DNA of 53,742 nucleotides from IMG/VR virus record IMGVR_UViG_3300018757_000034, positions 1-53,742 of that record; one strand, written 5' to 3'. Below are positions 1 through 35,485 of the stretch, one piece after another. Position numbers and translations under genes: made by a program. The stretch's first letter is position 1. Every line of letters starts with the position of its first letter. This DNA is from a virus. Lineage: Duplodnaviria; Caudoviricetes. The notes under the pieces are model-generated. The model did not search any database. It worked only from the letters and a program-made list of their open reading frames with translations, and was not told the DNA's origin.

Positions 1-13
1 GGAGGACGGAACT

Positions 14-45
14 GTGAATGAAAAGGGATTTACACTGATAGAAAT
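14..45 (+). pseudogene. comGC: 5' fragment of competence major pilin comGC, interrupted by the prophage
   Basis: RBS GGAGG (1-5), GTG at 14, reads MNEKGFTLIE, the ComGC prepilin leader and cleavage motif KG|FTLxE. The expected hydrophobic helix is absent and the frame stops at 77-79. Confidence 0.85.
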
Positions 46-64
46 AAATAGGGGTAATAACCCC

Positions 65-1597
65 TTATTTTTGTTTTGAATTACTTTTGGAGTAATGCCA
101 GGGGAAGGGGTCTTCATTAACTAACACTTTCACATCAAAGTTTAAGCCTCCCACGTTTGCTTTTAATATGATATTGTCTCTATAAACAATACCTTCAGGA
201 AAGATTTTTCCCATTAGCATAGCTCTTTCGAGAGGAGAAAAATCACTATCAAAAAAATTAATTGACTCGAAAAGTTCGCTAAGAAAATCGTAACTCCACG
301 AATCACTTTTCAATGTTTCAAGCTTCGCTTTATCTCTTTTAAGTTGTGTTTGAAGATTTTCTGTTATGTTCTTGATTTCAACCTGTTTCTTATTTAATTG
401 ATCCTTTGTTAGATGATTGTCCAAGTATAAATCAATCAGCTTTTCATTTTTGGTGGTGTGCTTCTGGATGATTTGTTCATTGTTTTTTATGTTTTGTTCA
501 AGTTGAGTAATTTCTTCCTTTTCATTTTCAAGATTTACGTATTGTTTTGCTAATTCTTTACTGGTGACAATATCTTTAATTGCTTGTATGATATTACCCT
601 CAACTCTAACTGTATTTATACTCACATCACAAACTGAACCATCAGCTAGTCTCAATTTTCGGCCATGCTTTAGATAATAACGGGGAGACTCTTTGGTTCC
701 GTGGGCAGCAAGACTAATTTTTCTTCCACATTCACCGCATACAAAATATGTTCTTCTTAAAAGGTGAAGATCATTTCTCTTCCTACTGGTAACTTTATAT
801 TGATTTCCTCTTTTATTTCTTTCTATCTGAATTTTCTCCCAAGTTTCTTTGGTTCTTAACTTGGGAAAGATATTCTCTGCAGCAATCACTTCACCATTCG
901 CAAATGTTTTTTCTTGAACACCATGATATGCTTTTGTGGTCAGCCTAGTATGTACTAGATGCTCATTCCACATAATACCGGAAGGCGTTTTTGAGATTTT
1001 ATTAAGTTCATCTGTGATGCTTCTCATTCCTAGTTGTTCTTCCAGGTATAATCGATCAATGAATGGGATTACCCAAGCCCATTCTTTTTTTAATTTATAT
1101 TGTTCTTCCTTCTTATCATAATAATATTCATATGGAGCCTGGCCCCAGCCTTTACCTTCACGCATTCTTTGGCGTTTTCCACGCATCATTCTTTTCACAA
1201 GAGCTTTCTTTTCTCTCTTGGCAATTAAATTTTTAATGTCACTAACAAATTCTTGATCTTCATCATCTAGATCTACTATAGTTCCAGGTTCAGCGATTTT
1301 GACTTTGTTTTCACGAAGAGTAGACTTTAAATATTCCCATGATATTGTATCCAGACGAGAAAGTCTATCTTGATCAATGCAGACAACGACATCAATTTTA
1401 CCTTCTTCAACAATGTCGAGAAGGGCATTTAAGCCCTTTTTATGCAGCTTCCCACCAGATTCGATATCTTGAAATTCATCCACCAATCGCCATCTTTGTT
1501 GTTCCACATATCGGTGGAGTTCAGTTGTTTGCGCTCGTAGAGAATACTTTTCTTCTTGCATCTTTGTTGAAACACGTATATAGATGGCGGCTCGCAT
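65..1597 (-). CDS. Large serine recombinase (integrase)
   Basis: N-terminal YIRVST catalytic motif, DRLSR motif, recombinase domain, CGECG zinc ribbon, coiled coil. Confidence 0.95.
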   Translation of the reverse strand: MRAAIYIRVSTKMQEEKYSLRAQTTELHRYVEQQRWRLVDEFQDIESGGKLHKKGLNALLDIVEEGKIDVVVCIDQDRLSRLDTISWEYLKSTLRENKVKIAEPGTIVDLDDEDQEFVSDIKNLIAKREKKALVKRMMRGKRQRMREGKGWGQAPYEYYYDKKEEQYKLKKEWAWVIPFIDRLYLEEQLGMRSITDELNKISKTPSGIMWNEHLVHTRLTTKAYHGVQEKTFANGEVIAAENIFPKLRTKETWEKIQIERNKRGNQYKVTSRKRNDLHLLRRTYFVCGECGRKISLAAHGTKESPRYYLKHGRKLRLADGSVCDVSINTVRVEGNIIQAIKDIVTSKELAKQYVNLENEKEEITQLEQNIKNNEQIIQKHTTKNEKLIDLYLDNHLTKDQLNKKQVEIKNITENLQTQLKRDKAKLETLKSDSWSYDFLSELFESINFFDSDFSPLERAMLMGKIFPEGIVYRDNIILKANVGGLNFDVKVLVNEDPFPWHYSKSNSKQK

Positions 1598-1646: not shown

Positions 1647-2732
1647 TCATCTATTTAGTACTGATGATAAAACTTCTTCATTCACTTTAGTGATATTAAG
1701 ATAGCTAGTAATAACATCTTTTGATATTTTTAAGGTGACTGGCGAAAAGCTAGAAATCATTTTCTCAAAATCTAATTTTTTTTCTATAATTATTTCGTAT
1801 TGTAGTAATTCTAAATACCGCATAATATCCATAACATTATTAGGTTCACTTATAAAAACTCCAACTAAATGAGTTAATTTAGAAAGGTAATGTGGCTCTA
1901 TAAAGACCTCATGACCAATATCCTCAGTGTTAGTAATTTTCTGCAAGATAGGTCTCATATCTCGCACAAGGTTAATTTTATTAGTTAAGCCGTTTACACC
2001 CCCATGTATATATTCTAAAACTCCTTGAGGGATAGCTGAAATATTTCTATGCATAATATAATTGCAGCATTCGAAAATAGTTCTGCAGAATAAAATTACA
2101 ATTTCCATTAGTATGAACTTATGAGTCTTATCGTTGTATTTAAAGTTTTTATAGAAATCATTTTTTTCTAACATAACTAAAAGTGTCTTTAAGTTTGTTG
2201 GATTATCATTAAACCAATATCTCACGTTTAAGTATTTATAAATCATTGAATATTCGTCAGTAAGAGAATTAATTATTTCTAATTTGTTTGTATAATATTC
2301 TTCATTAAAAAGATTTGAAATCTTCGAGGTGTTGTATATTCTTTCCATCTCAATGAGATTGTTATTGTCTATTCCATAAATATTAAGTCTATCTAGAATG
2401 ACCCTGATGTTACGAGAGATTTTATTTTTTATTAAGTATCCTTTATTAGTTCCTACATAATCCATGACGCCTTTTAACCAAAAAACTCTTTCAACCATTT
2501 TTACATTCTTTCCGGACTTACAATCACCAAGTTGTTTAATGATATAAAAATCATTATTTACTTTCTCACCGTAAACATCCATATCGGTGAGGTCATGTCT
2601 TTTAGGTAATTGTGTTTTTGCATCCAGTTCATAAGCAATTACAGGAATTTCAATTCTAGTCCAAAAACCCATTTGCCACATAATTCTTTGAAATTTTATT
2701 TTTTGTTTAAAATCCCTATCATTAAAAAACAT
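1647..2732 (-). CDS. Putative PD-(D/E)xK nuclease, candidate defence effector
   Basis: N-terminal TDMDV...GDCKSG resembles the restriction-endonuclease-fold active site; AT-rich; overlaps the upstream gene by 11 nt. Confidence 0.6.
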   Translation of the reverse strand: MFFNDRDFKQKIKFQRIMWQMGFWTRIEIPVIAYELDAKTQLPKRHDLTDMDVYGEKVNNDFYIIKQLGDCKSGKNVKMVERVFWLKGVMDYVGTNKGYLIKNKISRNIRVILDRLNIYGIDNNNLIEMERIYNTSKISNLFNEEYYTNKLEIINSLTDEYSMIYKYLNVRYWFNDNPTNLKTLLVMLEKNDFYKNFKYNDKTHKFILMEIVILFCRTIFECCNYIMHRNISAIPQGVLEYIHGGVNGLTNKINLVRDMRPILQKITNTEDIGHEVFIEPHYLSKLTHLVGVFISEPNNVMDIMRYLELLQYEIIIEKKLDFEKMISSFSPVTLKISKDVITSYLNITKVNEEVLSSVLNR

Positions 2733-4041
2733 CCGGTTCTCCTCCGTTTTGGAAAAGTTTATTTAATACACTATTTATCTCACGGTTTTGTTCAGCTGTC
2801 GTATTCAATCCAATTCTTTGTTCTAAGGTTCTACTAATGGATTTAAGGTTCCCAAGGTTAGGGATGTATCCGTTAAATTCATACTCTGTAAGAAGTTTTC
2901 TTTCTTCCCAGGCTTCCCCAATGATGCCCCTAGTCAATTCTGAGTCAAAATCTGTGTCTGTAAACAAAATTTGTTGAGCTAATTTAACAACCATTCTAGC
3001 ATAATCTGTATCGGCTAAATAAAATCTATATCTTTTATTTCCTATTTCTTCTATTCTTCCTAATCCGCAATCTCGAAGGACACCATATTGAGCTTCAATA
3101 TCACTATGAGGAGTTTCGCCAATATAACCTCGGTCTAATAATCTTTGTAAAAATAATTCAGGAGATCTTAAAGCAGATATTTTAGAAAAACTTTCCCCGT
3201 ACCTAACGGCGGCAACAACGTATCTTGCATGTTTAAGTAGTTGTTTATCGTCTACTTCTGTAAATGGGCTAAACATAAAATTAACTTTGCCGCCCGAGGC
3301 TACAATAGCAGGAGTCTGTATTAAATTATTTTTCATAATTTCTAATAATATATCATTCTTAATTAAGTTTAAATCCGTTAATGGAAATCCAGGCTTAACC
3401 TTAAGTAGTTGAAGGGCATCCTGTACTTCTTTTTCATCATATTGGGACAAGAAATTCATAATTTGACTGGAGTTTTCTTCCATGTAAATTGGTGAAAAAA
3501 TCACTTGTTCTTCAGTGTTCTGATTTGTAAAGCTATCGATGAAACCACCTTCTTTTCCTATGAATAAAAGGTTATCAATATTATTTTGGTCCAAATCAAA
3601 GTCGGTTTTAAGTTTTCTTGGAGATAAACTAAACTTACTTAATCTATCTATAATTTCAATTGTTTGTTGTTCAAATTCTTGAGGGGAGCTATGTTTCCAA
3701 AACTCTCCTAACCGTTCATAAGTGGTGTCGAATTTATCCAATAAAACCTCGATCTTACTTGGACGATTTTTACTACCTTTTATACGTATGTATCTAATAT
3801 CCTCTAGAATATTCAATATCGAAATTAGCTCTGCAAACTGAATCTTTAATTTAGATGCTAAAACAACTAATCCATCAAAATTTTCAATTACATGAATGCC
3901 TCTTAAATGGGAGGCCAAACTTGCACACTTCCCTATTAAAATTGTTTGTCTAAGGTTTAAATCAAGATAAGGATCTTGATAACCTATAAGTCCAGTTTGG
4001 ATATCAAGACTTCTAACACCGATTTGTTTATTGTTAATCAT
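2722..4041 (-). CDS. Hypothetical 439-aa protein, partner of the putative nuclease
   Basis: Long AT-rich ORF with RBS (GAAGG); no recognisable catalytic motif. Confidence 0.75.
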   Translation of the reverse strand: MINNKQIGVRSLDIQTGLIGYQDPYLDLNLRQTILIGKCASLASHLRGIHVIENFDGLVVLASKLKIQFAELISILNILEDIRYIRIKGSKNRPSKIEVLLDKFDTTYERLGEFWKHSSPQEFEQQTIEIIDRLSKFSLSPRKLKTDFDLDQNNIDNLLFIGKEGGFIDSFTNQNTEEQVIFSPIYMEENSSQIMNFLSQYDEKEVQDALQLLKVKPGFPLTDLNLIKNDILLEIMKNNLIQTPAIVASGGKVNFMFSPFTEVDDKQLLKHARYVVAAVRYGESFSKISALRSPELFLQRLLDRGYIGETPHSDIEAQYGVLRDCGLGRIEEIGNKRYRFYLADTDYARMVVKLAQQILFTDTDFDSELTRGIIGEAWEERKLLTEYEFNGYIPNLGNLKSISRTLEQRIGLNTTAEQNREINSVLNKLFQNGGEPDVF

Positions 4042-4137: not shown

Positions 4138-4608
4138 TTAAGTATCATTATGTAAAGGAAGATTAATACCAATATTAATTCTTTCATGAGCAAATTCATT
4201 TGTAACATTAAAAAGAGTTGCAATCTCGCTTATAGCCTTGGTTTTTAAATAATTTAATCGCTTTAACATAAATAGGGGAACACAAAATTTATAAGCGAAA
4301 ATTTTGGCTTGCATCTCTTGTAACTCAGCAAAAAGGGGAGACATAATCAATTGATTCCCCTCGTGTCTAAGAGCATGACAAAGTTCATGACCAAAATCTT
4401 GCCACTGTTCTTGAGGGGAAATCCTATTATCAAGAATAATTACTCCATCATAATAACGACTACCTATGTTTAGAAATTCCACCTTTAATCCCAATCGATG
4501 CGAGATATCTAAGAGATCCAATTCATGAGGATTTGAAATTTTCATTTCCTTGTAAAATGCCTCAATCCAATCCTCGAGATGTGTATTATGGGGGACTATA
4601 GTTTTCAT
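4138..4608 (-). CDS. ImmA/IrrE-family metallopeptidase (anti-repressor, YqaB/XkdA-like)
   Basis: FGHELCH HExxH motif plus downstream E-x-QA; adjacent to the repressor. Confidence 0.92.
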   Translation of the reverse strand: MKTIVPHNTHLEDWIEAFYKEMKISNPHELDLLDISHRLGLKVEFLNIGSRYYDGVIILDNRISPQEQWQDFGHELCHALRHEGNQLIMSPLFAELQEMQAKIFAYKFCVPLFMLKRLNYLKTKAISEIATLFNVTNEFAHERINIGINLPLHNDT

Positions 4609-4634
4609 CTGTAGTTGCCTCCTTAAAAACTAAA

Positions 4635-4648
4635 GGAATATATGTTCG
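4635..4648 (-). promoter_or_regulatory. LexA (SOS) box-like site upstream of the ImmA gene
   Basis: Minus strand CGAACATATATTCC versus Bacillus consensus CGAACRNRYGTTCG. Confidence 0.65.
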
Positions 4649-4801
4649 CATTTAAGGTAAAAAGAAAAGCCCAAAGGCTTAGTAAAAGATGTAAACGATA
4701 TACATAATAAACCAACGAAAGGATATTGTCCATATTCAGAGCGGAAATTTAAAAAAGTTCACACTCTAAAGCTCTAAATAAAACAAAGTAATATATCATT
4801 A

Positions 4802-5149
4802 TTAGTTTGTTTTATCGCGGTTTTTTATGAACTCCCAGAACTGAATTAACTCATCAATTTTTTCTTCTGGTGCGTCTTTTAGATCCTTAAAGAGCAACTG
4901 AGTTTTAGGATTTAAAAGTTCCTTCCACATATCATCGTTAGATCCCTCATGTTCTTTTCCTGTCAAGAGAAAATCAATTGAAACATCATAAAGATCTGCC
5001 AATTTTTTAGTGGTTTCATAATCAGGTTGCCGTTTTCCTGATTCATAACTAGACAACGTGTTATTTTTTACACCGATTTTTTGGGCAACAAATTTTTGTG
5101 TTAACCCCGCTTTTTCACGTAAAAATTTCAATCTATCTGCATAATTCAT
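4802..5149 (-). CDS. XRE-family prophage repressor (ImmR/SknR-like)
   Basis: HTH LREKAGLTQKFVAQKIGVKNNTLSSYESGKRQP; divergent from cro. Confidence 0.93.
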   Translation of the reverse strand: MNYADRLKFLREKAGLTQKFVAQKIGVKNNTLSSYESGKRQPDYETTKKLADLYDVSIDFLLTGKEHEGSNDDMWKELLNPKTQLLFKDLKDAPEEKIDELIQFWEFIKNRDKTN

Positions 5150-5285
5150 GAATTATTCTCACTTCCCAATATTATCGCTTTATCGATATTACGCTTTACC
5201 GTAATTTTAACATTATTTATTTCTCTATTTGAGAAAAAATAATCACAATTCGAGAAAAAAATATCACAAAACGAGAACAAAAATC

Positions 5286-5314
5286 TTTACATTCTCGTTT
5301 TGTGAACTTATAAT
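5286..5314 (+). promoter_or_regulatory. Early lytic sigma-A promoter
   Basis: TTTACA-17 nt-TATAAT with an operator filling the spacer. Confidence 0.85.
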
Positions 5315-5354
5315 AAAATTGAATTCACGAAACGAGAACTTTGGGGGTGATAAT

Positions 5355-5558
5355 TTGAAGGAGATCTTGGGTTCCCGAATAAGAGAGCTAAGAAAAGAAA
5401 AAGGGCTAACTCAGTTTTATCTTGCTATTGAGTTGGGGTATAAACACTCTTCCATTATTAGTGAGATTGAATCCGGTAAGAAAAGTCTTAATGCCGAGAA
5501 GTTGCCCACTGTTGCTAAAGCGTTAGATGTAGAGATAAACAAACTTTTTTTTGAATAA
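5355..5558 (+). CDS. Cro-like XRE HTH protein
   Basis: TTG start after GGGGTGA RBS; HTH IRELRKEKGLTQ...ISEIESGK. Confidence 0.88.
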   Translation: MKEILGSRIRELRKEKGLTQFYLAIELGYKHSSIISEIESGKKSLNAEKLPTVAKALDVEINKLFFE

Positions 5559-5606: not shown

Positions 5607-5798
5607 GTGAATCAACTTCCTGTTGATCCAGAGTTTCTCAAAAAGAGAATGGCTATCCCGTCAAAAATTGCTCAGTTGTCTTACTGCGATCCAGAGAAAG
5701 CAATTAAGTATATCCGCATTTGGGGGGAACATAAAAAGCCTGTATCTGAGTTATACACTGAATTAATTAATGCACTCATTGAAACTAAAGTTGTTTAG
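5607..5798 (+). CDS. Hypothetical phage protein
   Basis: RBS GAGGTGA, GTG start, 63 aa. Confidence 0.75.
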   Translation: MNQLPVDPEFLKKRMAIPSKIAQLSYCDPEKAIKYIRIWGEHKKPVSELYTELINALIETKVV

Positions 5799-7527: not shown

Positions 7528-7704
7528 ATGGCAAAACCATATAGAATTATTAGTTTTAGTTCAGATCGATTTGATCAATGGAGAATCAGTGAGTCTGGCG
7601 GATGTATTTCTTTCAAAGGTAGTACACCGGTATTTGAATTTAAAACCAAAGGACAATACGAGAAATATCTCAAGCTAAATGATCGTAGGGGGATTCAACA
7701 ATGA
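7528..7704 (+). CDS. Small hypothetical protein (58 aa, MAKPYRIISF...), not in the ORF track
   Basis: AAGGAGG RBS; ATGA overlap with the next gene. Confidence 0.75.
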   Translation: MAKPYRIISFSSDRFDQWRISESGGCISFKGSTPVFEFKTKGQYEKYLKLNDRRGIQQ

Positions 7705-8615
7705 ATGGTTTATCGGCTATAAATTATGACGATTACAAGCCTACCGATACTAAAGCACAAAGCGTAACCCAACAAGCTATGATCAGCAGACAAGCTCAAG
7801 AAGTACAGGTCGGCATGTATGTAGCAAAAAACTTCCCCCGGGACACTTATCAGGCTGTTGAGCGGGTTAAAACGGCATGCCAAAGAAGGTTGCTTGCTGA
7901 AAATGCAATTTATGAATATCCTCGCGGAGGCACAAAAGTTTCAGGGCCTTCAATTAGGCTGGCAGAAGCATTAGCCCAATGTTGGGGAAACATCGATTTT
8001 GGAATTATGGAACTCGAGCAAAAGGCTGGCGAATCAACTGTTATGTCTTATGCATGGGATCTCGAAACAAACACCAGACAAACAAAAATTTTCACTGTAA
8101 AACATGAACGGTCAACCAAAAAAGGCATTCAAAAATTAACCGATTCCCGCGATGTTTATGAACATATTGCCAATCAAGGCTCTCGCCGTTTAAGAGCCTG
8201 TATTCTTGGTGTGATTCCAGGTGACATTGTAGATCTAGCAGTTGATATGTGTCAAAAAACTCTTATCAGCGGTCATAAAGAGCCTTTAGAGGACCGCCTA
8301 AGAAATGCACAAACTATGTTTAAACAAGAATTCGGAGTAACCAAAGAAATGCTTGAAGAGTATATTGGTAGCAATTTTGACGCTTTTTCCGAACATGATT
8401 ATTTGAAAATTGGCCGTGTCTACAATTCATTGCGCGATGGCATGGCTAAGAAAGAAGATTATTTCAACATCAAAACCCCTTCTGCAACTAAATCTAAGGC
8501 TGAAGAGGAATTCAAAAAGCAAAAGGAAAAAGAAAAAGCACTAAAAGCGGAGAAGGAGGGTGATCCTGCTGATGGTGACCCTACCGCAGGTGAACAAGGA
8601 GAATTACTATTCTAA
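7701..8615 (+). CDS. Putative ssDNA-annealing recombinase
   Basis: Position next to an exonuclease, size, charged disordered tail ending GELLF; family not firmly recognised. Confidence 0.55.
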   Translation: MNGLSAINYDDYKPTDTKAQSVTQQAMISRQAQEVQVGMYVAKNFPRDTYQAVERVKTACQRRLLAENAIYEYPRGGTKVSGPSIRLAEALAQCWGNIDFGIMELEQKAGESTVMSYAWDLETNTRQTKIFTVKHERSTKKGIQKLTDSRDVYEHIANQGSRRLRACILGVIPGDIVDLAVDMCQKTLISGHKEPLEDRLRNAQTMFKQEFGVTKEMLEEYIGSNFDAFSEHDYLKIGRVYNSLRDGMAKKEDYFNIKTPSATKSKAEEEFKKQKEKEKALKAEKEGDPADGDPTAGEQGELLF

Positions 8616-9378
8616 CGAGATTGATAAGTATTACATGTCAAATTCACAATACAAGAGTTTTTTGCAATGTGAAGCTGCAACTATGGCAAAAATCAATGGA
8701 GAGTGGGAGCCACCAACTTCGGAAGCTCTCCTCTTCGGTCAATATATTCATGCCTGGCTTGAAGGAGAAGCTGCTTTTGACGAATTCAAAAACAACACAC
8801 CCTCTCTCTTTACTAAAAAAGGACATTTATATAAACAATATCAGTTAGCTGATCAGATGATTGAAACAATAAGAAGTGATGAACTCTGTATGTTTGTTCT
8901 TACTGGAGAAAAGGAAGCCATTATTACTGCCGAGCTATTCGGTGTTCATTGGAAAGGAAAGCTAGATGTCTATAACCCTGCAGGTGGACGGTTTGCAGAT
9001 TTAAAAACAACACGTTCATTACGGGAGAAGGTTTGGGATCCTGAGTTAGGATATTGTTCTTTTGTAGAAGCATATGGATATATTGCCCAAATGGCGTTAT
9101 ATGCAGAAATTGAAAAACGCTTTTCCAAAAGAAATGAATGGCTCGAGCCACTCATTGTTGGAGTTTCCAAGGAAAATCCGCCGGACAAAGCCGTCATCAA
9201 CATCGGTGAAAGCCGAATGGAAGTAGAGCTTGAGGATATTGAAAGAAGAATGGATCGTATTCTGCAGGTTAAACACGGTGGGGAAAAACCGAAACGCTGC
9301 GAAAGGTGCCAATATTGCCGCGCCACAAACCAGCTTAACCATATCGTTCATTTTACGGAGTTGATTGGCCAATCATGA
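8572..9378 (+). CDS. PD-(D/E)xK exonuclease (RecE/DUF3799-like)
   Basis: YMSNSQYK, KGKLD...ADLKTT, YxxQxAxY motifs, C-terminal CxxCxxC. Confidence 0.85.
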   Translation: MVTLPQVNKENYYSNEIDKYYMSNSQYKSFLQCEAATMAKINGEWEPPTSEALLFGQYIHAWLEGEAAFDEFKNNTPSLFTKKGHLYKQYQLADQMIETIRSDELCMFVLTGEKEAIITAELFGVHWKGKLDVYNPAGGRFADLKTTRSLREKVWDPELGYCSFVEAYGYIAQMALYAEIEKRFSKRNEWLEPLIVGVSKENPPDKAVINIGESRMEVELEDIERRMDRILQVKHGGEKPKRCERCQYCRATNQLNHIVHFTELIGQS

Positions 9379-9563
9379 AGGAAATTCTGATTCCTTATCC
9401 CTTCTGTTATGTATGGTTGACGGAAGGAATAAAAGAACGAAATGAACGGAAAGCGCTACTTGAAATGTATGTGAGGGATTATATCAAGGCAAATGAAGAG
9501 AATCTGGAATTTATAAAGGTTAAAGGCTTTTCAGCGCTCTGTAAACGGAAAGGAGGAGATTGA
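9375..9563 (+). CDS. Hypothetical phage protein
   Basis: 62-aa ORF translationally coupled to neighbours. Confidence 0.7.
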   Translation: MKEILIPYPFCYVWLTEGIKERNERKALLEMYVRDYIKANEENLEFIKVKGFSALCKRKGGD

Positions 9564-9564
9564 C

Positions 9565-10377
9565 GTGCATGGATGGATTAAGTTGCACCGGAAGATAGTT
9601 GATCATGAAATATGGAGTGATGTAACGACATTTCGGCTGTTCACCTTACTTCTGCTTAAAGCAAGTCATCAGGATGGAATAAAAATTAACGGTATTGAAC
9701 TGAAAAAAGGTCAGTACATAAGATCCTATTCAAAATTATGTGACGACCTTGAATTTAAAGAAGGACGGGCGTTTAAAAAAGTCTCAAAAAGCACCATTTT
9801 ACGTTCTGTGAAAAAACTCGTGAAAAATGGAATGATCACCGTTAGCGAAACGGATAGCGGAACGCTGTTCACCATCGTTAAATATCAATTGTACCAAGGG
9901 TTTAGCCATACAGATGAATCGTTTCACGAAACGGATAATGAACCTTTAACGAAACGACCGCAGAACGATCACGGAACGATCGCGGAACAAAAACAAGAAT
10001 TAAAGAATTTAAGAAGAGAAGAAGAGGAAGAGAACCTCTCAGCATTCCAACAAATCGAAAACAAATTTCTGCAGCGGAAAGGCAGCTTGTTTTTATCGCC
10101 TATGGATTCGCAGTCAATCAACAGACTTCTTAAAGACCAAATTCCTTTGGAGAATATCCTGAAATGGATTGATGAAATATTCGACGAATACAAGCCGAAA
10201 CATCGTGCCGATACCATCAAATCTTTTGCTTACTGTGAAAAAGGCATTCTTGATCGATGGGCCAAGCTTAAGCAACAGCAATCGAATGTCAAAGAGTTCC
10301 CGAATAAGAAAATCAAGAACAGTTTTGATGCTTTGGCCGAATATGCCAGAGAGCGCGGTATTCAGATGGGGGGATAA
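9565..10377 (+). CDS. Phage replication initiator (N-terminal wHTH, DnaD-like C-terminus)
   Basis: GWIKLHRKI start; SFAYCEKGILDRW DnaD-like motif; precedes loader and helicase. Confidence 0.85.
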   Translation: MHGWIKLHRKIVDHEIWSDVTTFRLFTLLLLKASHQDGIKINGIELKKGQYIRSYSKLCDDLEFKEGRAFKKVSKSTILRSVKKLVKNGMITVSETDSGTLFTIVKYQLYQGFSHTDESFHETDNEPLTKRPQNDHGTIAEQKQELKNLRREEEEENLSAFQQIENKFLQRKGSLFLSPMDSQSINRLLKDQIPLENILKWIDEIFDEYKPKHRADTIKSFAYCEKGILDRWAKLKQQQSNVKEFPNKKIKNSFDALAEYARERGIQMGG

Positions 10378-10379
10378 AC

Positions 10380-10661
10380 GTGGAAGTGAACCAGGCAATG
10401 GAGATCCTGCAAAGAATAGCTGCTGCTTATACAAAATTTGATTTAACCGGCGAAGTTGGTAAAAAGCGAATTGAACTCTGGATTGATCATCTTAGCAAAT
10501 TGCCATATGAACCGGTTTTCGCGAAAGTGGACGAGCACATTTTAAATAATCGATTTCCACCATCTATTGCTGAGATTAAAGTCAGACAGCCAGAGAAAAA
10601 CGAATTTTTAGCAAAACAGAAAGAGTGGGAACGCCATGCAAAATATTCTCCAAAACGTTGA
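10380..10661 (+). CDS. Helicase loader/inhibitor (SPP1 G39P-like)
   Basis: W...L...FPPSIAEI motif; between initiator and helicase. Confidence 0.8.
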   Translation: MEVNQAMEILQRIAAAYTKFDLTGEVGKKRIELWIDHLSKLPYEPVFAKVDEHILNNRFPPSIAEIKVRQPEKNEFLAKQKEWERHAKYSPKR

Positions 10662-11940
10662 GGCTGAACAGGCTCTGCTCGGCTGCATTCTCGTAGAAAG
10701 TGACCTGATTAAAGAATTGTCTCTGCAGCCCGAGCATTTTTCTGAAACGAGACATCAAGTCATTTTTAAGGCCATGCGTGAGGTTGAAAAGCTCGGCAAG
10801 TCCGTTGATATGGTCACCACGGTTACAAAATTAGGCGATTCCGTTGAGCAAGTAGGTGGCCTTCAATATTTAACGGACTTAGGTAGTGCAGTGGCCAGCA
10901 CCGCCAATTTCTTGGCCTATCAGACATTGATTTACGAAGCTTATAGATTAAGAGAAATGAAAAAGATTGCGATTGAATTCGCAAATACTCCGACCGACGA
11001 CGGCATCACGGAGCTATATAAACGAGCGATGGAGCTTCAAGAAATCGGCATTGAAAAAACCCGTACGAAACAGGATGTCCTCATGGAGATTTACAATGAC
11101 ATGCACGAGGAGAAGGAGGACATCACGGGCATCAACACTGGATTAATCGATTTGAACGCTATGACAGGCGGCTGGCAGGATGGCGACTTAATTGTGTTAG
11201 CCGCCCGCCCATCTATGGGAAAAACCGCTTTTGCATTAAACATGGGGAAATCAAATTGTGAAAAGGGTGGAGTGACCGACATTTTTTCACTTGAAATGCC
11301 GGACAAGCAATTAACTCATCGTCTACTTAGCAATCTTGGGAACATCGAGGGATCGAAGTGGAAGAACCCCCGAAAGTTCTTTAGCGATCACGATTATGGG
11401 AATGCAACCAAAGCCATTGGAGAATATGAAAGTTGGAATATCAACATTCACGATCAACCTGCTCAAACACTGGCAGATATACGTTCAAAAATTCGAAAGA
11501 CGAAAAAAGAAAATCCGGATAACCAAAAGCATTTGGTCATCATCGACTATCTGCAGCTTATCCGAGCTATAGGAAAGTATGAAAGAAGGGACTTAGAGGT
11601 CGGGAGTATTACTGCAGAATTGAAGGAAATGGCCCGAGCATTCAAGATCCCGATCATTCTTCTTTCTCAATTATCTAGGGCGGTAGAGCAGCGGCAAGAT
11701 AAGCGGCCAATGATGTCCGACTTAAGGGAATCCGGAAGCATTGAACAAGATGCCGATGTCGTCATGTTTCTTTACCGCGATGATTACTACAACAAAAATT
11801 CCGAACTAAAAAACATTATTGAAATTGATCTTGCCAAGCAGCGAAACGGTCCGACCGGCATGATACAAGCAAGCTTTATAAAGGAGTACGGAAGATTCAT
11901 AAACCTTGCCAGGCAGATGGATGCCGGTTTGGTTGGATAA
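10636..11940 (+). CDS. DnaB-family replicative helicase
   Basis: AARPSMGKT Walker A, IIDYLQL, LSQLSR, DLRESGSIEQDAD, KQRNGP. Confidence 0.97.
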   Translation: MQNILQNVEAEQALLGCILVESDLIKELSLQPEHFSETRHQVIFKAMREVEKLGKSVDMVTTVTKLGDSVEQVGGLQYLTDLGSAVASTANFLAYQTLIYEAYRLREMKKIAIEFANTPTDDGITELYKRAMELQEIGIEKTRTKQDVLMEIYNDMHEEKEDITGINTGLIDLNAMTGGWQDGDLIVLAARPSMGKTAFALNMGKSNCEKGGVTDIFSLEMPDKQLTHRLLSNLGNIEGSKWKNPRKFFSDHDYGNATKAIGEYESWNINIHDQPAQTLADIRSKIRKTKKENPDNQKHLVIIDYLQLIRAIGKYERRDLEVGSITAELKEMARAFKIPIILLSQLSRAVEQRQDKRPMMSDLRESGSIEQDADVVMFLYRDDYYNKNSELKNIIEIDLAKQRNGPTGMIQASFIKEYGRFINLARQMDAGLVG

Positions 11941-23825: not shown

Positions 23826-24695
23826 ATGGCGAGACCGCGTGATCCAAGACGTGACGAAGCGTTCCGTTTATGGAAAGAAAGCAGCGGAACCAAGAAATTA
23901 AAAGACATCGCGGATGAATTGGGCGTCTCAAGCAGCACCGTCCGCAAGTGGAAAGCAACAGATAAATGGGAAGATGAATTCAAAAGGAGCGCTCCTAAAC
24001 CGAATGGGAGCGCTCCTTTTCGTCCCGGCGCTCCAAAAGGGAATAAAAACGCCAAAGGAAACAAGGGCGGAAATGTACCGCCTGGAAACCAAAATGCTAA
24101 AGGGAATAGGGGCGGTGCTGCACCAAAAGGGAATAAAAATTCTGTCCGTACCGGTGAATATGAAACAATCATGTGGGATTTTTTAACCGAGGATGAGCGA
24201 CAGCTGTTCGGGGAAATCGAAACGGACCCGCTCTTTCAAATTGATCTAACCATCAGGGAGTTAAACCTTCGGGAGCGGAGAATGATGCAGCGGATCAGCC
24301 GGATAGAAAGCGGCCTATCTGAAAAACAGCGCCGCGTGCTGCAACAAATGCGCAAGGTCAAGGACATCGTTCAAACCCCGGATAAGAATGGACTAGTCAA
24401 GCCCGTCCCGGTTATGAATGAGCGTCTTGTCGTGACTGAAATTGAGGAAACCGAGATGCGGGCTATTGATGATATTTTGAATATCGAGGAGGCACTCACC
24501 CGGGTAACGGATAAGCGGCTGAAGGCCATTCGTCAGAAATACGATATGATCCGCTTAATGGATGAACATGAATTGAAGCTCCGCGGTATCTATCTTTCAA
24601 ATGAGACAAAACAAGTTGAGCTTGAACGCTTGACTGCCCGCCCTGTGGACAATTCTGTGAATATCACAATTACTCGTAAGGGTGACGGCAAATGA
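23826..24695 (+). CDS. Terminase small subunit (YqaS/XtmA-like)
   Basis: N-terminal [12 protein letters not shown] repeats, upstream of TerL. Confidence 0.93.
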
Positions 24696-25993
24696 CGGTA
24701 AAAGAAAAAGAAGTCAATCCGCATTTTGAAGACTTTCTCTTTGACTGGAATCAAAAATTTCAGCTGCTCGTCGGCGGTTACGGATCATCCAAAAGCTATC
24801 ACATCGCTCTCAAGCTCATTTTGAAGCTTCTTGAAGAAAAACGAACAGTATTAGTCATTCGTGAAGTGTACGACACTCACCGGGATTCTACATTCTCTCT
24901 TTTTGAAGAGATCATCAATGATTTAGAGATTGATCATATTGTGAGGTGTATGACATCCCCGATGCAGGTCAGGTTTCCAAATGGCAGCCGGATCATATTC
25001 AAGGGGCTGGACAAACCGGCCAAACTGAAATCGATCAATAACATCTCGATCATTTGGATTGAGGAATGTTCAGAGGTCAAGTATGAAGGCTTTAAAGAGC
25101 TTCTCGGCCGTCTGCGGCATCCTACGCTGCCGCTTCATATGATTTTTTCCACGAACCCGGTCGGGGAAGACAACTGGACGTATAAGCATTTCTTTAAAGA
25201 CGATCTGAATAATCGATTTGTCCTGGATGATAAAGAGCTTTATGAAAAGCGAACGATCGTTTTAAATGACACATACTATCATCATTCCACGGCGGAAGAT
25301 AATTTGTTTCTACCAGAAAGCTATGTAAGGCAGCTGGATGAACTGAAAGAATACGATCCAGACCTTTACCGCATCGCCAGGAAAGGTCATTTTGGTGTGA
25401 ATGGGGTTCGGGTTTTTCCTCAGTTTGAAGAGTGGCCACACGATGAAGTTATGCAAGCCATCTCGAACATTGACCGTCCCATCAAGCGGGTAGGCATGGA
25501 CTTTGGTTTTGAAGAATCCTATAACGCTGTAGTCCGGCTTGCGGTGGATCATAAGAAAAAGCACCTCTATATCTATTGGGAGTATTACAAAAGAGGAATG
25601 ACGGATGACCTGACGGCAGAGGAGCTCCAAGAATTCAAGAACACCCAGGAGCTGATCAAAGCTGATTCAGCGGAGCCTAAAACGATTCAATATTTCCGGC
25701 AGCAGGGTTTCAATATGGTGGGAGCGCATAAGTACCAGGGTTCGCGCCTGCAGTATACGAAAAAGATCAAGCGGTTTAAAAAAATCATTTGTTCTGATCA
25801 ATGTCAAAACACTATTTTTGAACTCAAGCCGCTGACCTATAAAAAGGACAAGCTGGGTAACATCATTGAAGATGAATTCAAGATCGACCCCCACACTCTT
25901 TCGGCCATCTGGTACGCCCTCGATGATTACGAGGTCACCGATCTGAAGGAGAAACCGAAAATCCGGCCGCGGCCAAATAGAGAGAGGAGGTAA
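24692..25993 (+). CDS. xtmB: PBSX-family terminase large subunit
   Basis: GGYGSSKS Walker A, WIEE Walker B, GMDFG nuclease motif. Confidence 0.95.
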
Positions 25994-25996
25994 AGC

Positions 25997-27535
25997 ATGG
26001 CTCAACAATCTGTAAAAGCCACCGTGTTCAAAGCGAATGCGCCGAGCGAAACGACCAAACAGATTTATGAAGATCAGTTCACCTATCAAGGAAATGACAT
26101 CATCGAGCCGCCTTATAGTTTGAAGGAATTGAAAAGCATCGCAGAGTATTCAACGATCCTGCAGCAGTGCATTCACGCCTACAAAACGAATATTCTCGGC
26201 TTTGGCTTTGATGTGGAATACACCTTTGACATTAACGGGGATGATGTACAGTCTGAAAAAAAGCAGGCTGCGGAAAATGATTGGACTCGGCTTGAGGAAT
26301 TTATCCGCTACCTTCATTTTGATGAATCAGCCGAAATTGTTGTCGGATACGCTATAGAAGATCGGGAGAAAACCGGGAACGGATTTCTAGAAGTTCTTCG
26401 CAACGGGACCGGGCAGCCGGCGGGAGTTGAATATCTTGATGTTAAAAACATGAGGGTGTGCCACTATACAGAGCCGATCGAAGTAGAATTCACATTTCGG
26501 GAGCACAATGAAATCAAAACGATGAAGCGGAAGAAAAGATTCCGGAAGTACGTTCAGATGGTTGATGGAAAACAGGTCTTCTTCAAGGAATACGGGGATC
26601 CGCGAATTATGAATTTGCGGACTGGCAAATATGAAGCCAACACTCCAGAGGAGCTTCAAGCTAACGAAGTCATTCACTTCAAGCTCGGCAGCGGTGCTTA
26701 TGGCGTTCCCCGTTGGATTGGGCATATCGTAAATCTATACGGGGCCAGAAAAGCGGAAGAACTGAATTACATGTACTTTAAGCAAGGCAGGCATATCCCG
26801 GCAGCCATCACGGTGGAAAACGGGATGCTTTCTGAAGCCTCTTATCAACAGCTGCAGGAGTACATGAATGACCTTGAAGGCACAGAAAACGCTCATAAAT
26901 TCCTCCTGCTTGAAGTAGAGGGAATACCAACTGAAAAGGGCATTACGGGGGAAGAGAATGTTTCTTCCGTCAAAGTTGATATTAAGTCCCTGGGCGAAAT
27001 TCTGCAGCAAGACGCCTTATTTCTTGAATATGACGAGAAAAGCAGAAGCAAGCTGCGTTCTGCCTTCCGTCTGCCGCCGCTGTATACAGGGGAAGCACAC
27101 GAGTATAACAAGGCAACCGCGGACACCGCTCGAAAAATCACAGAAGAACAAGTCTTTCAGCCGGAAAGGAAGATCATAACCGGCAAACTGAATAATTTGT
27201 TTCTGTCTGATTTGAATATTTATCATGCTCAGCTTACTTTAAAAGGTCCAGACTTCCGTGATCCGATGGAGATTGCCAAAGTATTAGGGCCTTTTATTAA
27301 TGCCGGTGCAGTATCTCCCAATGATCTCCGGGATCTGGCTGGTCGTGTTCTTGGGAAAACACTTGAAGAATGGCCGGAGGATGAATACAGTCGGCCGCTT
27401 GGCAAGGTACAAAACAATTCTTCTGATCCGCTGCAGGCTCTTTTTCAAAAATCAAAAGATAATCGTTCAGAGGATTTGATCATGCTGCTGAAGGATATGA
27501 GGGATGTCCTTGAGGAGTTGAAGCAAAATGAATAA
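25997..27535 (+). CDS. xkdE: Portal protein (XkdE/YqbA)
   Basis: Synteny; YGVPRW and SAFRLPP motifs. Confidence 0.92.
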   Translation: MAQQSVKATVFKANAPSETTKQIYEDQFTYQGNDIIEPPYSLKELKSIAEYSTILQQCIHAYKTNILGFGFDVEYTFDINGDDVQSEKKQAAENDWTRLEEFIRYLHFDESAEIVVGYAIEDREKTGNGFLEVLRNGTGQPAGVEYLDVKNMRVCHYTEPIEVEFTFREHNEIKTMKRKKRFRKYVQMVDGKQVFFKEYGDPRIMNLRTGKYEANTPEELQANEVIHFKLGSGAYGVPRWIGHIVNLYGARKAEELNYMYFKQGRHIPAAITVENGMLSEASYQQLQEYMNDLEGTENAHKFLLLEVEGIPTEKGITGEENVSSVKVDIKSLGEILQQDALFLEYDEKSRSKLRSAFRLPPLYTGEAHEYNKATADTARKITEEQVFQPERKIITGKLNNLFLSDLNIYHAQLTLKGPDFRDPMEIAKVLGPFINAGAVSPNDLRDLAGRVLGKTLEEWPEDEYSRPLGKVQNNSSDPLQALFQKSKDNRSEDLIMLLKDMRDVLEELKQNE

Positions 27536-28445
27536 GACCGATCAGCTTTTAAACAGTCTGAACGTCTTTATTCGAAAGGCCGAGGAAGATGATGAAAAAT
27601 CACTCGTGGAGGTTATACCTGATTTCCCCGGCCTTTCTAAAATACCCGGTTATGTCCAGGAATATGAAAAAAAGGTCGCCAGATTGCTCAGAAGCCAGCG
27701 TAAGAAGTTTTTAAATGGTGTGAATGATTTTGTAAGCAAAGACTCAAAAGAGACGTTAAAAGCCATTCTGGTGTATTTTACGCAGAATCTATTTGCAGGG
27801 GACGACTTCGAGGAGCAATTTCAAGAGCTGACAGAAGGTTTCCTTCAGCAGACCATTGAGGAGCTGGCTTCTGTCATCATGGATTCATTGGATCCTGAAG
27901 TACCGTTTAAAGTTCTTTCGAGTCGTTCAACAAATTGGATCAAAGGCTGGTCCGAAGAGCTGGCCGAGATCATGAAATTGAATACCCATGAGGCGGTAGA
28001 AAACGTGCTGACAGATGCCATCAAGAACGGTTCTTCTATTCAGGACATTGAATTGACTCTCCGGGACTTGCCGCAGTTTGATAGATCGCGAGCACGGATA
28101 ACAGCCATAACTGAAGTGCTTGCCGCTTCCTCTGCAGCGCAGCAGGAGGCTTATTCTCAATCGCCGGCTGTCATCGCGAAAAAGTGGAAGCACAGCGGGG
28201 GAAAGAAAAATAATCCGCGTGAAAATCACATGGTTCTCGATGGAACGATTGTTGGAGTAGATGAAGAATTCATGATTCCAGGTAGCGGTGAAACCTGCAT
28301 GCATCCAAGAGATTCAAAGCTGTCAGCAAAGGAGCGGGTTCATTGTCATTGCGTTCTATCACCCGTGGTTGATAACAAAATTTTAGGGTTATCACTTGAA
28401 GAAAAAGAAGAGATTCGAAGAGAAGCCTTAGCAAATATGGAATAA
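27528..28445 (+). CDS. Minor head morphogenesis protein (Mu gpF/YqbB-like)
   Basis: RARITAITE, PRENH...DG, VHCHC motifs. Confidence 0.88.
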   Translation: MNKTDQLLNSLNVFIRKAEEDDEKSLVEVIPDFPGLSKIPGYVQEYEKKVARLLRSQRKKFLNGVNDFVSKDSKETLKAILVYFTQNLFAGDDFEEQFQELTEGFLQQTIEELASVIMDSLDPEVPFKVLSSRSTNWIKGWSEELAEIMKLNTHEAVENVLTDAIKNGSSIQDIELTLRDLPQFDRSRARITAITEVLAASSAAQQEAYSQSPAVIAKKWKHSGGKKNNPRENHMVLDGTIVGVDEEFMIPGSGETCMHPRDSKLSAKERVHCHCVLSPVVDNKILGLSLEEKEEIRREALANME

Positions 28446-28486
28446 AGTAGTATAATAGCCTCATTATATAATAGTGGGGTTTTAAT

Positions 28487-29344
28487 ATGGATTTGAATGC
28501 TTTTGGGTTTATAAAGGAATACTTACCTGTTATTACTGTAGTTTTATCAGCGTTTATTGCATTTATTTCAACTATTCGACACAAAGACCTTGAAAGGTTT
28601 TATAAAAATGCTGAAAATAACTTAGAAAAAGTAATCGAACCTATGTATCTTAAGGTTAAAAACATCGAAAATATCGAGGATAGACAACATAAAATTGAGC
28701 TGATTAAAGACTTTTTCGATATTTATGATTCGAAAAAAATGAATATCTCAAAGCTTGGGAATAGACAGTTGATTAATAAATTTTTTGAGACAGAGAAGGC
28801 ATTTAATCAATATATTCTTAAATTTGATGAAGAAAGTTTGAAATCATTATTCTTTAAAGTAAGGAGTCTAAAATACAATATTGAAAAAGAGTATTGGAGG
28901 CTGTTTGAGACTATATATAAGGACTACAACTGGTATAAAAAAACTGTAGACATGAATTATCTATTCCGCTTTTTTTTAAGAGTCTCTTTTTTTATTGAAA
29001 GTACCTTATATGCAGTTACTTGGATATCATTTGGTTTTGTACTGTTTGTAATTTTTGACGAAGTGTCTGTTAGTGAAGCAGTTTGGGTTGAAAACTTTAA
29101 AGAAGATATTTTATCTGCACTTATAATTTTTATTTCGTCTCTTGCCACTCTTTATATTTCTATGTTTATTAATTTTGCTTTTGCAGACGATACAAAACAG
29201 AAAAAAAGATTCGTCGATTATGCATCGGCGGGTTTAACTTATGTATTGAAGAAGATTTCTTTGAAAAATCGAGAATGGAAAGAAGAACGAGCTAATCGCA
29301 AAGTAGAAAGAGAACGTGCTGCCCGCTCAAAAGTAAATGATTAA
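28487..29344 (+). CDS. AT-rich membrane protein (moron in the head module)
   Basis: N-terminal TM plus two C-terminal TMs; markedly lower GC than flanks; TATAAT boxes upstream. Confidence 0.8.
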   Translation: MDLNAFGFIKEYLPVITVVLSAFIAFISTIRHKDLERFYKNAENNLEKVIEPMYLKVKNIENIEDRQHKIELIKDFFDIYDSKKMNISKLGNRQLINKFFETEKAFNQYILKFDEESLKSLFFKVRSLKYNIEKEYWRLFETIYKDYNWYKKTVDMNYLFRFFLRVSFFIESTLYAVTWISFGFVLFVIFDEVSVSEAVWVENFKEDILSALIIFISSLATLYISMFINFAFADDTKQKKRFVDYASAGLTYVLKKISLKNREWKEERANRKVERERAARSKVND

Positions 29345-29364
29345 GCTTGAAAGGGGGTGAATAA

Positions 29365-30336
29365 ATGCCACGCGAATTAGTAAACGCAAAAATCACACAT
29401 GTTTCTTATGTAGACAAGGCTGCTAACCAAAAGCAGTTCTTTTTTATGAAGTCAGAAAAACAGCCGGACTTTCAGAAAGAAATCAAGGTCCTGACAAAAG
29501 CGGATGATGAAAAAAAGCTTGTATACGGGATTGTATATGAACCAGATACGCCAGACGCTCATGGGGATTTCATGACAGCTGCCGAAATTGAGAAAGCAGC
29601 CCATGGATTCCTAAAGGATGCCAGGGAGATTGATAAGCAACATGATTTTCAAGGCGGCGTCGGTGAAGTGGTGGAATCCTATGTCGCGCCGGCGGACTTT
29701 GAGGTCAATGGTGAAACCATAAAAAAAGGATCATGGGTGCTTGTCACAAAAGCTTCGGATGAGGTCTGGGAGCAGATCAAAAAAGGCGACATCACAGGGT
29801 ATTCAATGGCCGGCACCGCCGAAACAATCGAAAAACAAAAAGAGAAGCCTGTTTCTCCTTCTGCCAATGAAGAGAAAGGGCTTTTTAATTTGCTGAAAAA
29901 CTTCTTTTTAGGCAAAAGCGAGGAGGAAGAAACGTCTGTAGAAAAAGCTGGTCGCAAGTTTTCGGCATCCAACCTGAATGAAATCAAAAGTGCTCATGCT
30001 GCACTCGGCAATTTGTTGAGTCAGGCAGAAGTCGAAGAGGAGGAAGACGAGTTGAAAAAAGAAGATATTGAAAAATTGCTTGATGACAAATTAAACCCGA
30101 TCACCAAGCGACTTGATGAAATTGAAAAGGAAGCTGAGCCTGCAGAGGGCGACGGAAAGGATGAAGAACAGTCCCTTGTTAAACAAATGGATGAGCTGCT
30201 TGAACAAAAGCTCTCACCTATTCAAGAGCGGTTGGAAGCTGTTGAAAAGAGCCGCAGTCTTTCAAAACAAGCCGGGGATGACCAAGTCTTAGACCAAGAA
30301 GAAGTCAAAAAGTCCGTTTGGGACGGCTTACTTTAA
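29365..30336 (+). CDS. xkdF: XkdF/YqbD-like prohead protease-scaffold
   Basis: SYVDKAAN, DAHGD, ITGYSMAG motifs; coiled-coil C-terminus. Confidence 0.9.
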   Translation: MPRELVNAKITHVSYVDKAANQKQFFFMKSEKQPDFQKEIKVLTKADDEKKLVYGIVYEPDTPDAHGDFMTAAEIEKAAHGFLKDAREIDKQHDFQGGVGEVVESYVAPADFEVNGETIKKGSWVLVTKASDEVWEQIKKGDITGYSMAGTAETIEKQKEKPVSPSANEEKGLFNLLKNFFLGKSEEEETSVEKAGRKFSASNLNEIKSAHAALGNLLSQAEVEEEEDELKKEDIEKLLDDKLNPITKRLDEIEKEAEPAEGDGKDEEQSLVKQMDELLEQKLSPIQERLEAVEKSRSLSKQAGDDQVLDQEEVKKSVWDGLL

Positions 30337-30348
30337 AGGAGGAATACG

Positions 30349-31284
30349 ATGAGAAACCAGGAGATTATCAACAAGGCAGAAATGACGCTCGCTTCACTGA
30401 AAAGCGGCGGGCTGATGAACCCTACTCAAGCATCAACGTTTATCCGTATGGTGCAAGATACGCCAACAATTTTAAATGATGCCCGCATCATTCCGATGGA
30501 CCACGATGCACAGAAATTTGAGAAGATCGGTTTTGGCCAGCGTATTCTGAGGGCAGCAGAGGAAGGAAAGTCACTTTCTTCTGATGAAAGAGCTGTTCCA
30601 ACTACAAGTACGATCGGTATGAACGCAAAAGAAGTCATCGCAGAAGTCCACATCACGTATGACACTCTCGAAAACAACATCGAAAAAGATGGCCTGCAAA
30701 ACACCATCATGCAGATGCTGGCTGAGCGCGCAGCAGTGGATATCGAGGAATTGATCATTAACGGTGATTCAAAATCAGATGATTCATTCCTTGCACAAAT
30801 TGATGGAATCCGTAAGCAAGCCCAATCTCACATTGTGGATGCTGCGGGGGGAGAGTTGTCACGGCAAATTTTCAAACGGGGTTATAAGGCTGTACCGCCT
30901 AAATATTTGCGCGTGCCGCAGGAATTCCGTTTCTATACTTCACCAGGTATCGAAGTTGAATGGAAGGATAAGGTGGCCGATCGTCAAACCAACTTAGGGG
31001 ATGCTGCTGTTCAAGGCGGGCTTTCTTCTGCTTTTGGTGTGCCGATCAAGGGAATTGCAAACATGCAGCCATATTCCACTGGCGAAGGAGAAAAAGCGAT
31101 CGACGTATCAGACGTCATTTTGACTCATCCGAAAAACATCGTGCTCGGATTTTCCCGTAATATCCGAATTGAAGTCGATAAAGATATCCGCCGACGAAAA
31201 TTCATTATTGTTTTGACAGCAAAACTCGACAGCGTGTTTGAGGAAGAGAACGCGGTAGCCAAAATCATCAAGGTCAAAGAGTAG
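30349..31284 (+). CDS. xkdG: Major capsid protein (XkdG/YqbE)
   Basis: Synteny; [23 protein letters not shown]. Confidence 0.92.
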
Positions 31285-35040: not shown

Positions 35041-35041
35041 G

Positions 35042-35485
35042 ATGGCTTTTAAAGCTCAAAACACGATCTCAGGAAAAGAAGGCCGTCTGTTTTTGGATGG
35101 TGAAGAACTGGCCTTTATTAAAACATTTGAAGCAAACGTGGAGAAAAATAAAGCAGAGGTCAATGTCATGGGCCGCCGTATGACAGGGCATAAGACAACG
35201 GGGGCAAATGGAACAGGAACAGCCACGTTCTACAAAGTTACATCACGATTTGTGCAGCTGATGCTGAACTATGTGAAAAAGGGAGAAGATCCGTATTTCA
35301 CATTGCAGGCCGTTCTCGATGACCAGTCTTCCGGCCGCGGAACAGAACGAGTCACACTGTTTGATGTGAACTTTGACTCCGCCAAAATCGCAGGGCTCGA
35401 TGTAGACTCAGAAGCGCTTGAGGAGGAAGTGCCGTTTACTTTCGAGGATTTTGATTTGCCTGAGAAATTGAATGATGCGTTTTGA
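35042..35485 (+). CDS. xkdM: Tail tube protein (XkdM)
   Basis: NTISGKEG...EEEVPFTFEDFD. Confidence 0.93.
   Translation: MAFKAQNTISGKEGRLFLDGEELAFIKTFEANVEKNKAEVNVMGRRMTGHKTTGANGTGTATFYKVTSRFVQLMLNYVKKGEDPYFTLQAVLDDQSSGRGTERVTLFDVNFDSAKIAGLDVDSEALEEEVPFTFEDFDLPEKLNDAF

Follow-up and report, generated by a model that had tools for sequence, protein, structure and literature searches.

The window analysed here is the whole of IMG/VR virus record IMGVR_UViG_3300018757_000034, a stretch of 53,742 nucleotides (nt). It appears to carry a complete-looking temperate phage with a contractile tail, lodged in the chromosome of a bacterium from the Bacillus haynesii group. The left end of this prophage lies within comGC, the gene of the major competence pilin. 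Its left junction with the host, together with the adjoining integrase gene, consists of the following features:

1..13, plus strand: host DNA with the comGC ribosome-binding site GGAGG (1-5) and spacer; the same sequence follows the comGB stop codon TAA in L003 and L033.
14..43, plus strand: 5' fragment of comGC as read from the sequence, with the GTG start codon (14-16) and codons 2-10.
41..45: core GAAAT, common to the attachment sites attL, attR and the empty attB in their alignment, comprising the Glu10 codon and the first two bases of the Met11 codon.
14..79, plus strand: truncated fusion open reading frame (ORF) of 21 codons, ten from comGC and 11 from the phage arm, closed by TGA (77-79).
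46..70 (core 50-65), both strands: phage arm P' with a terminator-like hairpin, located by a hairpin scan.
65..1597 (stop codon 65-67), minus strand: large serine integrase of 510 amino acids (aa), recognised by its Pfam domains.

Window base 1 is the first base 3' of the comGB stop codon. Host DNA occupies positions 1-45 and phage sequence starts at position 46. The peptide encoded by 14..43 comprises the prepilin leader, a Gly-Phe cleavage site and the first five mature residues, of which the last is Glu; the same ten residues open the intact ComGC of three close relatives (L014-L016). Directly 3' of the comGB stop codon, the same 45 nt are found in the 99%-identical copy of B. haynesii NRRL B-41327 and in IMG/VR contig L033. 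As these 45 nt follow comGB in the copies and the relatives' ComGC shares the ten residues, the match to comGC is not due to chance. Past the junction, the hairpin at 46-70 would terminate transcripts arriving from either side, those of the integrase gene (minus strand) and those reading through from comG (plus strand).

A first-pass annotation, made from the sequence alone, had described a pilin start that switches abruptly to a hairpin and the integrase stop codon. This description is confirmed, with the correction that the initiator read as 'M' is a GTG codon. The interval it assigned to the prophage, 1-1597, does hold the left junction and the integrase but is only that part of an element of about 53.8 kb.

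Judged by its domains, the product of 65..1597 is a large serine recombinase, predicted to catalyse attP x attB recombination. Pfam Resolvase covers residues 3-149 (E 3.1e-24) and Pfam Recombinase PF07508 residues 179-263 (E 1.1e-07), and the catalytic domain matches the structure of the TP901-1 integrase, 3bvp (E 3.6e-09). R8 and S10, part of a YIRVS motif, are invariant in six homologues, and so are C287, C290, H311 and C323. No Pfam zinc-ribbon was detected at E <= 0.001; residues 334-427 give a weak, coiled-coil-like match to Spectrin.

Both flanks of the insertion and the attachment core

As an IMG/VR provirus record, the 53,742-base window is trimmed at gene boundaries, its last base belonging to the start codon of a minus-strand lipoprotein gene, and comGB and the right junction therefore fall outside it. 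The flanks were read from two copies of 98-99% identity, namely B. haynesii NRRL B-41327 (G001) and a 54,610-nt metagenome contig (G478). The former is the one locus returned, at 99% identity, by an integrase search of species-representative genomes.

In the B. haynesii genome, comGA (354 aa) and comGB (344 aa) stand directly upstream of the left junction, ComGB scoring 337.7 bits against NCBIfam T4P_ComGB (cut-off 240). The right end of the window matches another contig of the same genome at 100%. Beyond it come 122 nt of phage DNA, the core and an 87-aa comGC remainder starting from Met11, followed in turn by comGD (148 aa), comGE (115 aa), comGF (169 aa) and comGG (121 aa). comGC is thus the third comG gene there, after comGA-comGB and before comGD-GG. 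The 87-aa remainder scores 100.2 bits against NCBIfam pilin_ComGC NF040999 (cut-off 75) and covers profile positions 9-83 of 84; the first eight positions, absent from it, correspond to the ten codons retained in the window. The metagenome contig holds both junctions on one molecule, with the comGB 3' end and attL at one end, and attR and 122 nt of the comGC 3' part at the other. Placed from these two copies, attR lies 123 nt past position 53742, and the element would measure about 53.8 kb in the window's version, its last 122 nt being taken from the relatives.

This is the gene order expected by the first-pass annotation: comGB, with comGA before it, precedes the left junction in the near-identical copies, and the rest of comGC followed by comGD lies at the right junction. 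The annotation had also allowed for a phage end that reconstitutes comGC, which is not the case at either end. On the left, the fusion ORF ends after 21 codons. On the right, the frame upstream of the comGC fragment stops nine codons before Met11 and offers neither a leader nor a Gly-Phe cleavage site. The phage ends thus rebuild no pilin.

Contigs C8, C63 and C23 of the same genome (L006-L011) give further partial matches, of 67-93% identity, to window positions 45000-53742, spanning tail, lysis and right arm. By sequence these point to other related prophages in the B. haynesii genome, which may explain why the present prophage is split over three contigs in the draft.

DNA identity between attL, attR and the attB of the relatives is limited to the 5-nt GAAAT. 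The phage arms at attL and attR are imperfect inverted copies of each other, with an alignment score of 10 (2000 shuffles: mean -4.4, maximum 7). Such a short core flanked by imperfectly palindromic arms, with no long attL/attR repeat, looks as expected for a serine-integrase site. Two distant relatives have GAGAT at attL versus GAAAT at attR, which, unless a later mutation intervened, places the crossover at GA or AT. Serine integrases require an asymmetric central dinucleotide, and GA is thus likelier than AT.

Occupied and empty sites across the order

In relatives of the B. haynesii genome, 17 of 17 loci (L014-L030) show no interruption of comGC. In the three closest of them, the ComGC N-terminus equals the window fragment joined to the 87-aa remainder of NRRL B-41327. 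The empty site is also seen in the raw reads of two strains sharing the species label of the lysogen run X3. These reads cover the host (comGB) side only, and those that overhang (68 and 62 in the two strains) pass into the 3' portion of comGC immediately behind window position 45. The isolate contig of run X3, for its part, bridges integrase, attL and comGB. With two strains empty and X3 occupied, the comGC site is polymorphic among runs of one species label.

In metagenome run X1, which may be the one the window derives from, contigs end right at the junction, where two of them overlap by 30 nt; depth is 29.4 on the phage side versus 50.2 on the host side. This suggests that occupied and empty sites coexist in X1, although depth is no cell count and mixed strains would explain it equally well. 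Raw reads were used for the prophage-free runs only, both lysogen runs being represented by contigs.

The integrase belongs to a clade that is spread over the order. A second IMG/VR provirus carries a 94%-identical integrase at the same junction, and the 45 nt of host DNA flanking it equal the start of comGC in the genome of another species (G010). Across 91 genomes of the family, only B. haynesii and a single 47%-identical homologue (G065, 599 aa) matched. The latter does not adjoin a pilin gene, so target specificity is not shared at 47% identity. In a sample of 401 genomes from the order, eight gave a match at E <= 1e-60, six with full or nearly full integrases (53-99% identity) and two with fragments; besides B. 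haynesii, then, five genomes of the order have homologous integrases, at 53-61% identity. All six genomes of the full or nearly full group have comGC cut at the same codon. Five of them show the prepilin codons right next to the integrase stop codon, and in every one of the six the ComGC remainder begins exactly at the equivalent Met, with a non-pilin arm before it and pilin-like ORFs after. In three of the six, integrase and comGC remainder sit on one contig, 47-50 kb apart. Apart from B. haynesii, each of the five lysogenic genomes has an open comGC remainder with four open pilin-like ORFs downstream of it. Altogether, it appears that the whole integrase clade in the order keeps the same codon-level target in comGC.

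Isolated phages offer no close counterpart. Searching their collection with window positions 1-3000 by blastn gave zero matches, and no close integrase was found in it: none of the 40 matching records reaches 60% identity, and the matches that cover the integrase well are 24-27% identical, the best streptococcal ones among them. The streptococcal Javan phage records whose matches cover the integrase best were tried as a source of host flanks and rejected, as they begin at the integrase stop codon and display no flank.

Some of the lysogenic genomes depart from the common pattern. In G422 (L045, L051) comGC is split at the usual codon, and the 54%-identical integrase lies on another contig with no pilin start within 400 nt past its stop codon; either extra DNA intervenes or a different integrase made the insertion. 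G292 has two right-junction copies, on contigs C33 (L056) and C6 (L052), one with the full comGC remainder and comGD-GG, the other with that phage arm too but only about 48 remainder codons; duplication, capture of a host fragment or the presence of a second element might account for the extra copy. G301 (L044/L054) and G287 (L046/L055) have a split pilin gene with no comGB within 1.5 kb upstream, where one has a tRNA-like region and the other an EAL-domain gene; comGD-GG-like ORFs follow the remainder. attL and attR of G301 share about 15 nt, versus 5 here. The integrase homologue of G287 (L046, G287:C3) spans residues 91-505 only, its ORF beginning after the catalytic serine region, and this prophage may be locked into comGC.

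An alternative reading is a neutral landing pad, in which the prepilin-motif DNA is used for its conservation and the loss of competence is a by-product that does not benefit the phage, in hosts that possibly use competence rarely. The target is indeed the most conserved part of comGC across the relatives, and the same integrase clade uses it in different neighbourhoods, including those of G301 and G287. Against this, the competence genes comYC, comFA, comK, comM and comGA have been hit repeatedly, in various species, by integrases reported as distinct, a pattern that the authors of the available reports read as selection (PMC4774983, PMC12378983). We regard a neutral landing pad as unlikely.

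Phage genome and candidate excision factors

All major modules of the phage are open (immunity, replication, packaging, head, tail and lysis), and IMG/VR rates the record as 100% complete. To the right of the integrase, the window contains:

1647..4041, minus strand: two overlapping ORFs of 361 and 439 aa, between the integrase and immunity genes.
4138..5149, minus strand: ImmA/IrrE-type M78 metalloprotease (4138-4608) and Xre-type repressor (4802-5149).
5229..5558, plus strand: Cro-like helix-turn-helix regulator, first gene of the rightward early operon.
5607..5798, plus strand: 63-aa protein just after the Cro-like gene, candidate directionality factor.
7701..11940, plus strand: exonuclease, DnaD-like helicase loader and DnaB-like helicase.
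9375..9563, plus strand: 62-aa protein of phrog_13255, present in all three distant prophages compared below; second candidate directionality factor.
24692..31284, plus strand: packaging and head genes (large terminase, portal, head protease, capsid-like structural protein).
33640..47320, plus strand: contractile tail (sheath, tube, 1752-aa tape measure, baseplate wedge, fibre).
48796..50408, plus strand: lysis genes (holin, GH25 and LysM endolysin).
50612..53742: right-arm accessory genes.
52144..52884, minus strand: 246-aa protein with two excisionase-type helix-turn-helix halves, 28% identical to each other.
53053..53742, minus strand: lipoprotein gene of the right arm.

Serine-integrase prophages leave the chromosome with the help of a directionality factor, and two candidates emerge when the window is set beside three distant prophages sharing its integrase. 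Of seven ORFs that match all three, two are shadow frames in the integrase gene; this leaves five, namely the integrase, both immunity genes, the 63-aa ORF and the 62-aa ORF. The family of the 63-aa protein, with 35-44% identity and 13 invariant positions, is found with the integrase clade in otherwise unrelated prophages. It has no Pfam or PHROG family, and its profile finds nothing below E 0.4 among solved structures. Its size and position presumably resemble those of known directionality factors. Complex predictions of integrase residues 265-510 with the 63-aa protein, run without controls, scored 0.00, 0.52 and 0.01 and speak neither for nor against such a complex. The 63-aa and 62-aa proteins are candidate directionality factors, put forward as leads only.

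The 246-aa double helix-turn-helix protein was dropped as a directionality factor; it was not found in the examined stretches beside attR of the distant prophages, and neither was any other of the right-arm accessory genes.

The two ORFs at 1647..4041 belong to no Pfam, PHROGs or NCBIfam family and give one weak PADLOC match (E 5.4e-04). Related copies differ here, run X3 having a loose end (L003 698) and L033 a 398-aa ORF. This looks like a site of exchangeable cargo, which might serve defence or exclusion. Between the replication and packaging modules lie a second, fused Xre-plus-M78 regulator of 386 aa (14928-16088) and a 554-aa protein (18223-19887) with weak SMC-like similarity to the LmuB and JetC models.

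The head and packaging module has its nearest phage record in B. pumilus PBP180, a defective phage-like element (71% identity over 58% of 7.9 kb). This relation would suit a cryptic, immobile remnant that neither excises nor forms particles and leaves comGC permanently dead in its lineage, as would the absence of this integrase from the phages of the isolated collection. Several observations speak for a mobile element instead: the integrase and all major modules are open, the record is rated complete, copies of 94-99% identity occur in several records with flanks matching the comGC starts of two species, and the site is polymorphic within one species label. A remnant of this kind therefore seems very improbable to us.

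Predicted block of transformation and known systems

We now propose how the prophage would act on its host. The 510-aa integrase would have recombined a roughly palindromic phage site with the prepilin-motif DNA of comGC, exchanging strands inside the 5-nt GAAAT at the Glu10/Met11 boundary. The left side keeps the comG promoter, comGA-comGB and ten comGC codons, which now run out in the 21-codon fusion ORF, with the terminator-like hairpin behind them. The other 87 comGC codons and comGD-GG lie about 54 kb away, next to a phage gene that points in the opposite direction. Far from their promoter and with the last phage gene directed away, ComGD-GG would probably be lost as well through polarity. 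The lysogen would thus have no major competence pilin, probably no minor pilins, and no DNA uptake.

ComGC is needed for pilus assembly (PMC12378983), and it is from this established need and from gene structure that we infer the loss of transformation and its reversibility. Going by serine-integrase chemistry, excision by the integrase and a phage directionality factor would restore comGC exactly, which would make the block reversible, though only via prophage induction or curing. The first-pass annotation, which expected a transformation-deficient lysogen, is reasonable in this respect. In short, we hold as very likely the reading in which the prophage splits comGC and the lysogen is predicted to be non-transformable, with a block that would be lifted only on prophage exit.

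A regulated switch, in which non-lytic excision during competence or another state rebuilds comGC (active lysogeny), would share part of this evidence. Judging from core and arms, excision would be seamless. The rest of the machinery seems kept: comK (205 aa) and comEC (826 aa) are open in the lysogen with no internal stops, the flanking comG genes are open too, and so are the comGC remainder and the four pilin-like ORFs in the five other lysogenic genomes. The apparent coexistence of occupied and empty sites in X1 also fits, as equally do mixed strains. On the other side, a scan of the whole window for paired ComK boxes gave 0 at <=1 mismatch and 5 at two mismatches versus 2.6 expected, a weak negative. 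The integrase stands at the end of the repressor-side operon, as an ordinary lysogeny gene would. In G287, moreover, the prophage is no working switch, since its integrase has no catalytic N-terminus. We find no support for a regulated competence switch and consider the idea quite doubtful.

Returning to the predicted non-transformable lysogen, several points weigh against it. The evidence is drawn from sequence. Both flanks come from the 98-99% identical copies, not from the window's own host, and the prophage-bearing runs are seen as contigs, which are unable to show rare excised forms. The directionality factor stands at the candidate stage only. Since PBP180, a defective PBSX-like element, is the nearest relative of the head and packaging module, infectivity is not assured. 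An unrecognised promoter could still drive comGD-GG. Finally, if the species is not naturally transformable, the loss costs the host nothing.

Prophages in competence genes are the main evidence for a conflict between transformation and mobile elements (the 'chromosomal curing' hypothesis). With the present element, the comGC example, known from streptococci and lactococci, comes to include Bacillus haynesii-type bacteria and five other genomes of the order. The group includes well-studied laboratory species, in which lysogenic, cured and re-sited strains could be compared directly. Where a strain proves refractory to natural transformation, a comGC prophage is also a possible cause that is simple and easy to check. 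In addition, the 5-nt core and arms of this integrase clade give the serine-integrase toolbox a further set of attachment sites that can be characterised.

Gene restoration by large serine recombinases is known from the B. subtilis elements skin (in sigK) and SPbeta (in spsM), whose excision is tied to mother-cell sporulation. Unlike these, the window element has no visible developmental control. Regulated non-lytic excision also occurs in the Listeria comK prophages, in phagosomes, which is the model for active lysogeny. These prophages, of the A118/phi10403S type, interrupt comK by means of a large serine integrase, according to a review (PMC12378983) that bears out the first-pass annotation on A118-like phages. 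They differ from the present case in targeting a regulator and not a pilin, and integrase identity concerns the catalytic domain only (32% over 133 aa). In Bacillus itself, prophages of B. cereus and B. thuringiensis split comFA (PMC4774983): the genus and the splitting of a competence gene are as here, whereas the gene itself is a different one and the integrase family is related to the Listeria comK type. radC is an insertion target in B. subtilis (PMC4774983, PMC12378983).

Prophages in comGC or comYC are on record for S. pneumoniae, S. mutans, S. parauberis and L. lactis (PMC4774983, PMC12378983). Lactococcal TP901-1 integrates within comGC and truncates it (PMC7693887), in agreement with the first-pass annotation. 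It resembles the window element in its large serine integrase, its target and the structural match of the catalytic domains noted above. Its published 13-bp core differs from the GAAAT core, whole-length integrase similarity is low, and TP901-1 is absent among the 25 phage matches listed. Serine-integrase prophages of S. agalactiae cluster B lie between ComGB and ComGD, in ComGC (PMC11357604), with a 10-nt attachment sequence that differs from the window core.

A parallel in position is offered by the pneumococcal PPH100 group, prophages with a 481-aa serine integrase that lie inside comGC and are reported to interrupt competence development (PMC8637289, PMC4774983). Translated by hand, the reverse complement of its published 17-nt core (PMC8637289) gives L-V-E-M-L-V in one frame. 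This is the prepilin motif of the pneumococcal ComGC N-terminus (PMC6370729), the same protein position as that of the window insertion. Here, in contrast, the host belongs to Bacillaceae and core identity is 5 nt only. Scanning IMG/VR for the 17-nt pneumococcal core returned 61 stretches with 65 matches, 0 of them in a prepilin context, an uninformative outcome. The best streptococcal integrases of the phage collection, 24-27% identical to that of the window, may or may not be of the PPH100 type, so that either common descent with the pneumococcal integrases or convergence would fit. That the clade is a dedicated Bacillales module for the prepilin codons of comGC, travelling with the immunity pair and the 63-aa protein, perhaps akin to the pneumococcal one and acting in some hosts as a reversible switch, is a speculation to which we give little weight.

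The literature on comGC and comG prophages, that on Bacillus, B. licheniformis and B. haynesii included, contains no Bacillus comGC insertion in the parts available, supplements excepted. The window is a Bacillus case of the known comGC-disrupting prophage arrangement, which is usually read as self-protection of mobile elements from removal by transformation (PMC4774983, PMC12378983). What it adds to the known cases is an integrase clade that, as far as the compared genomes indicate, keeps one codon-level target within the order.

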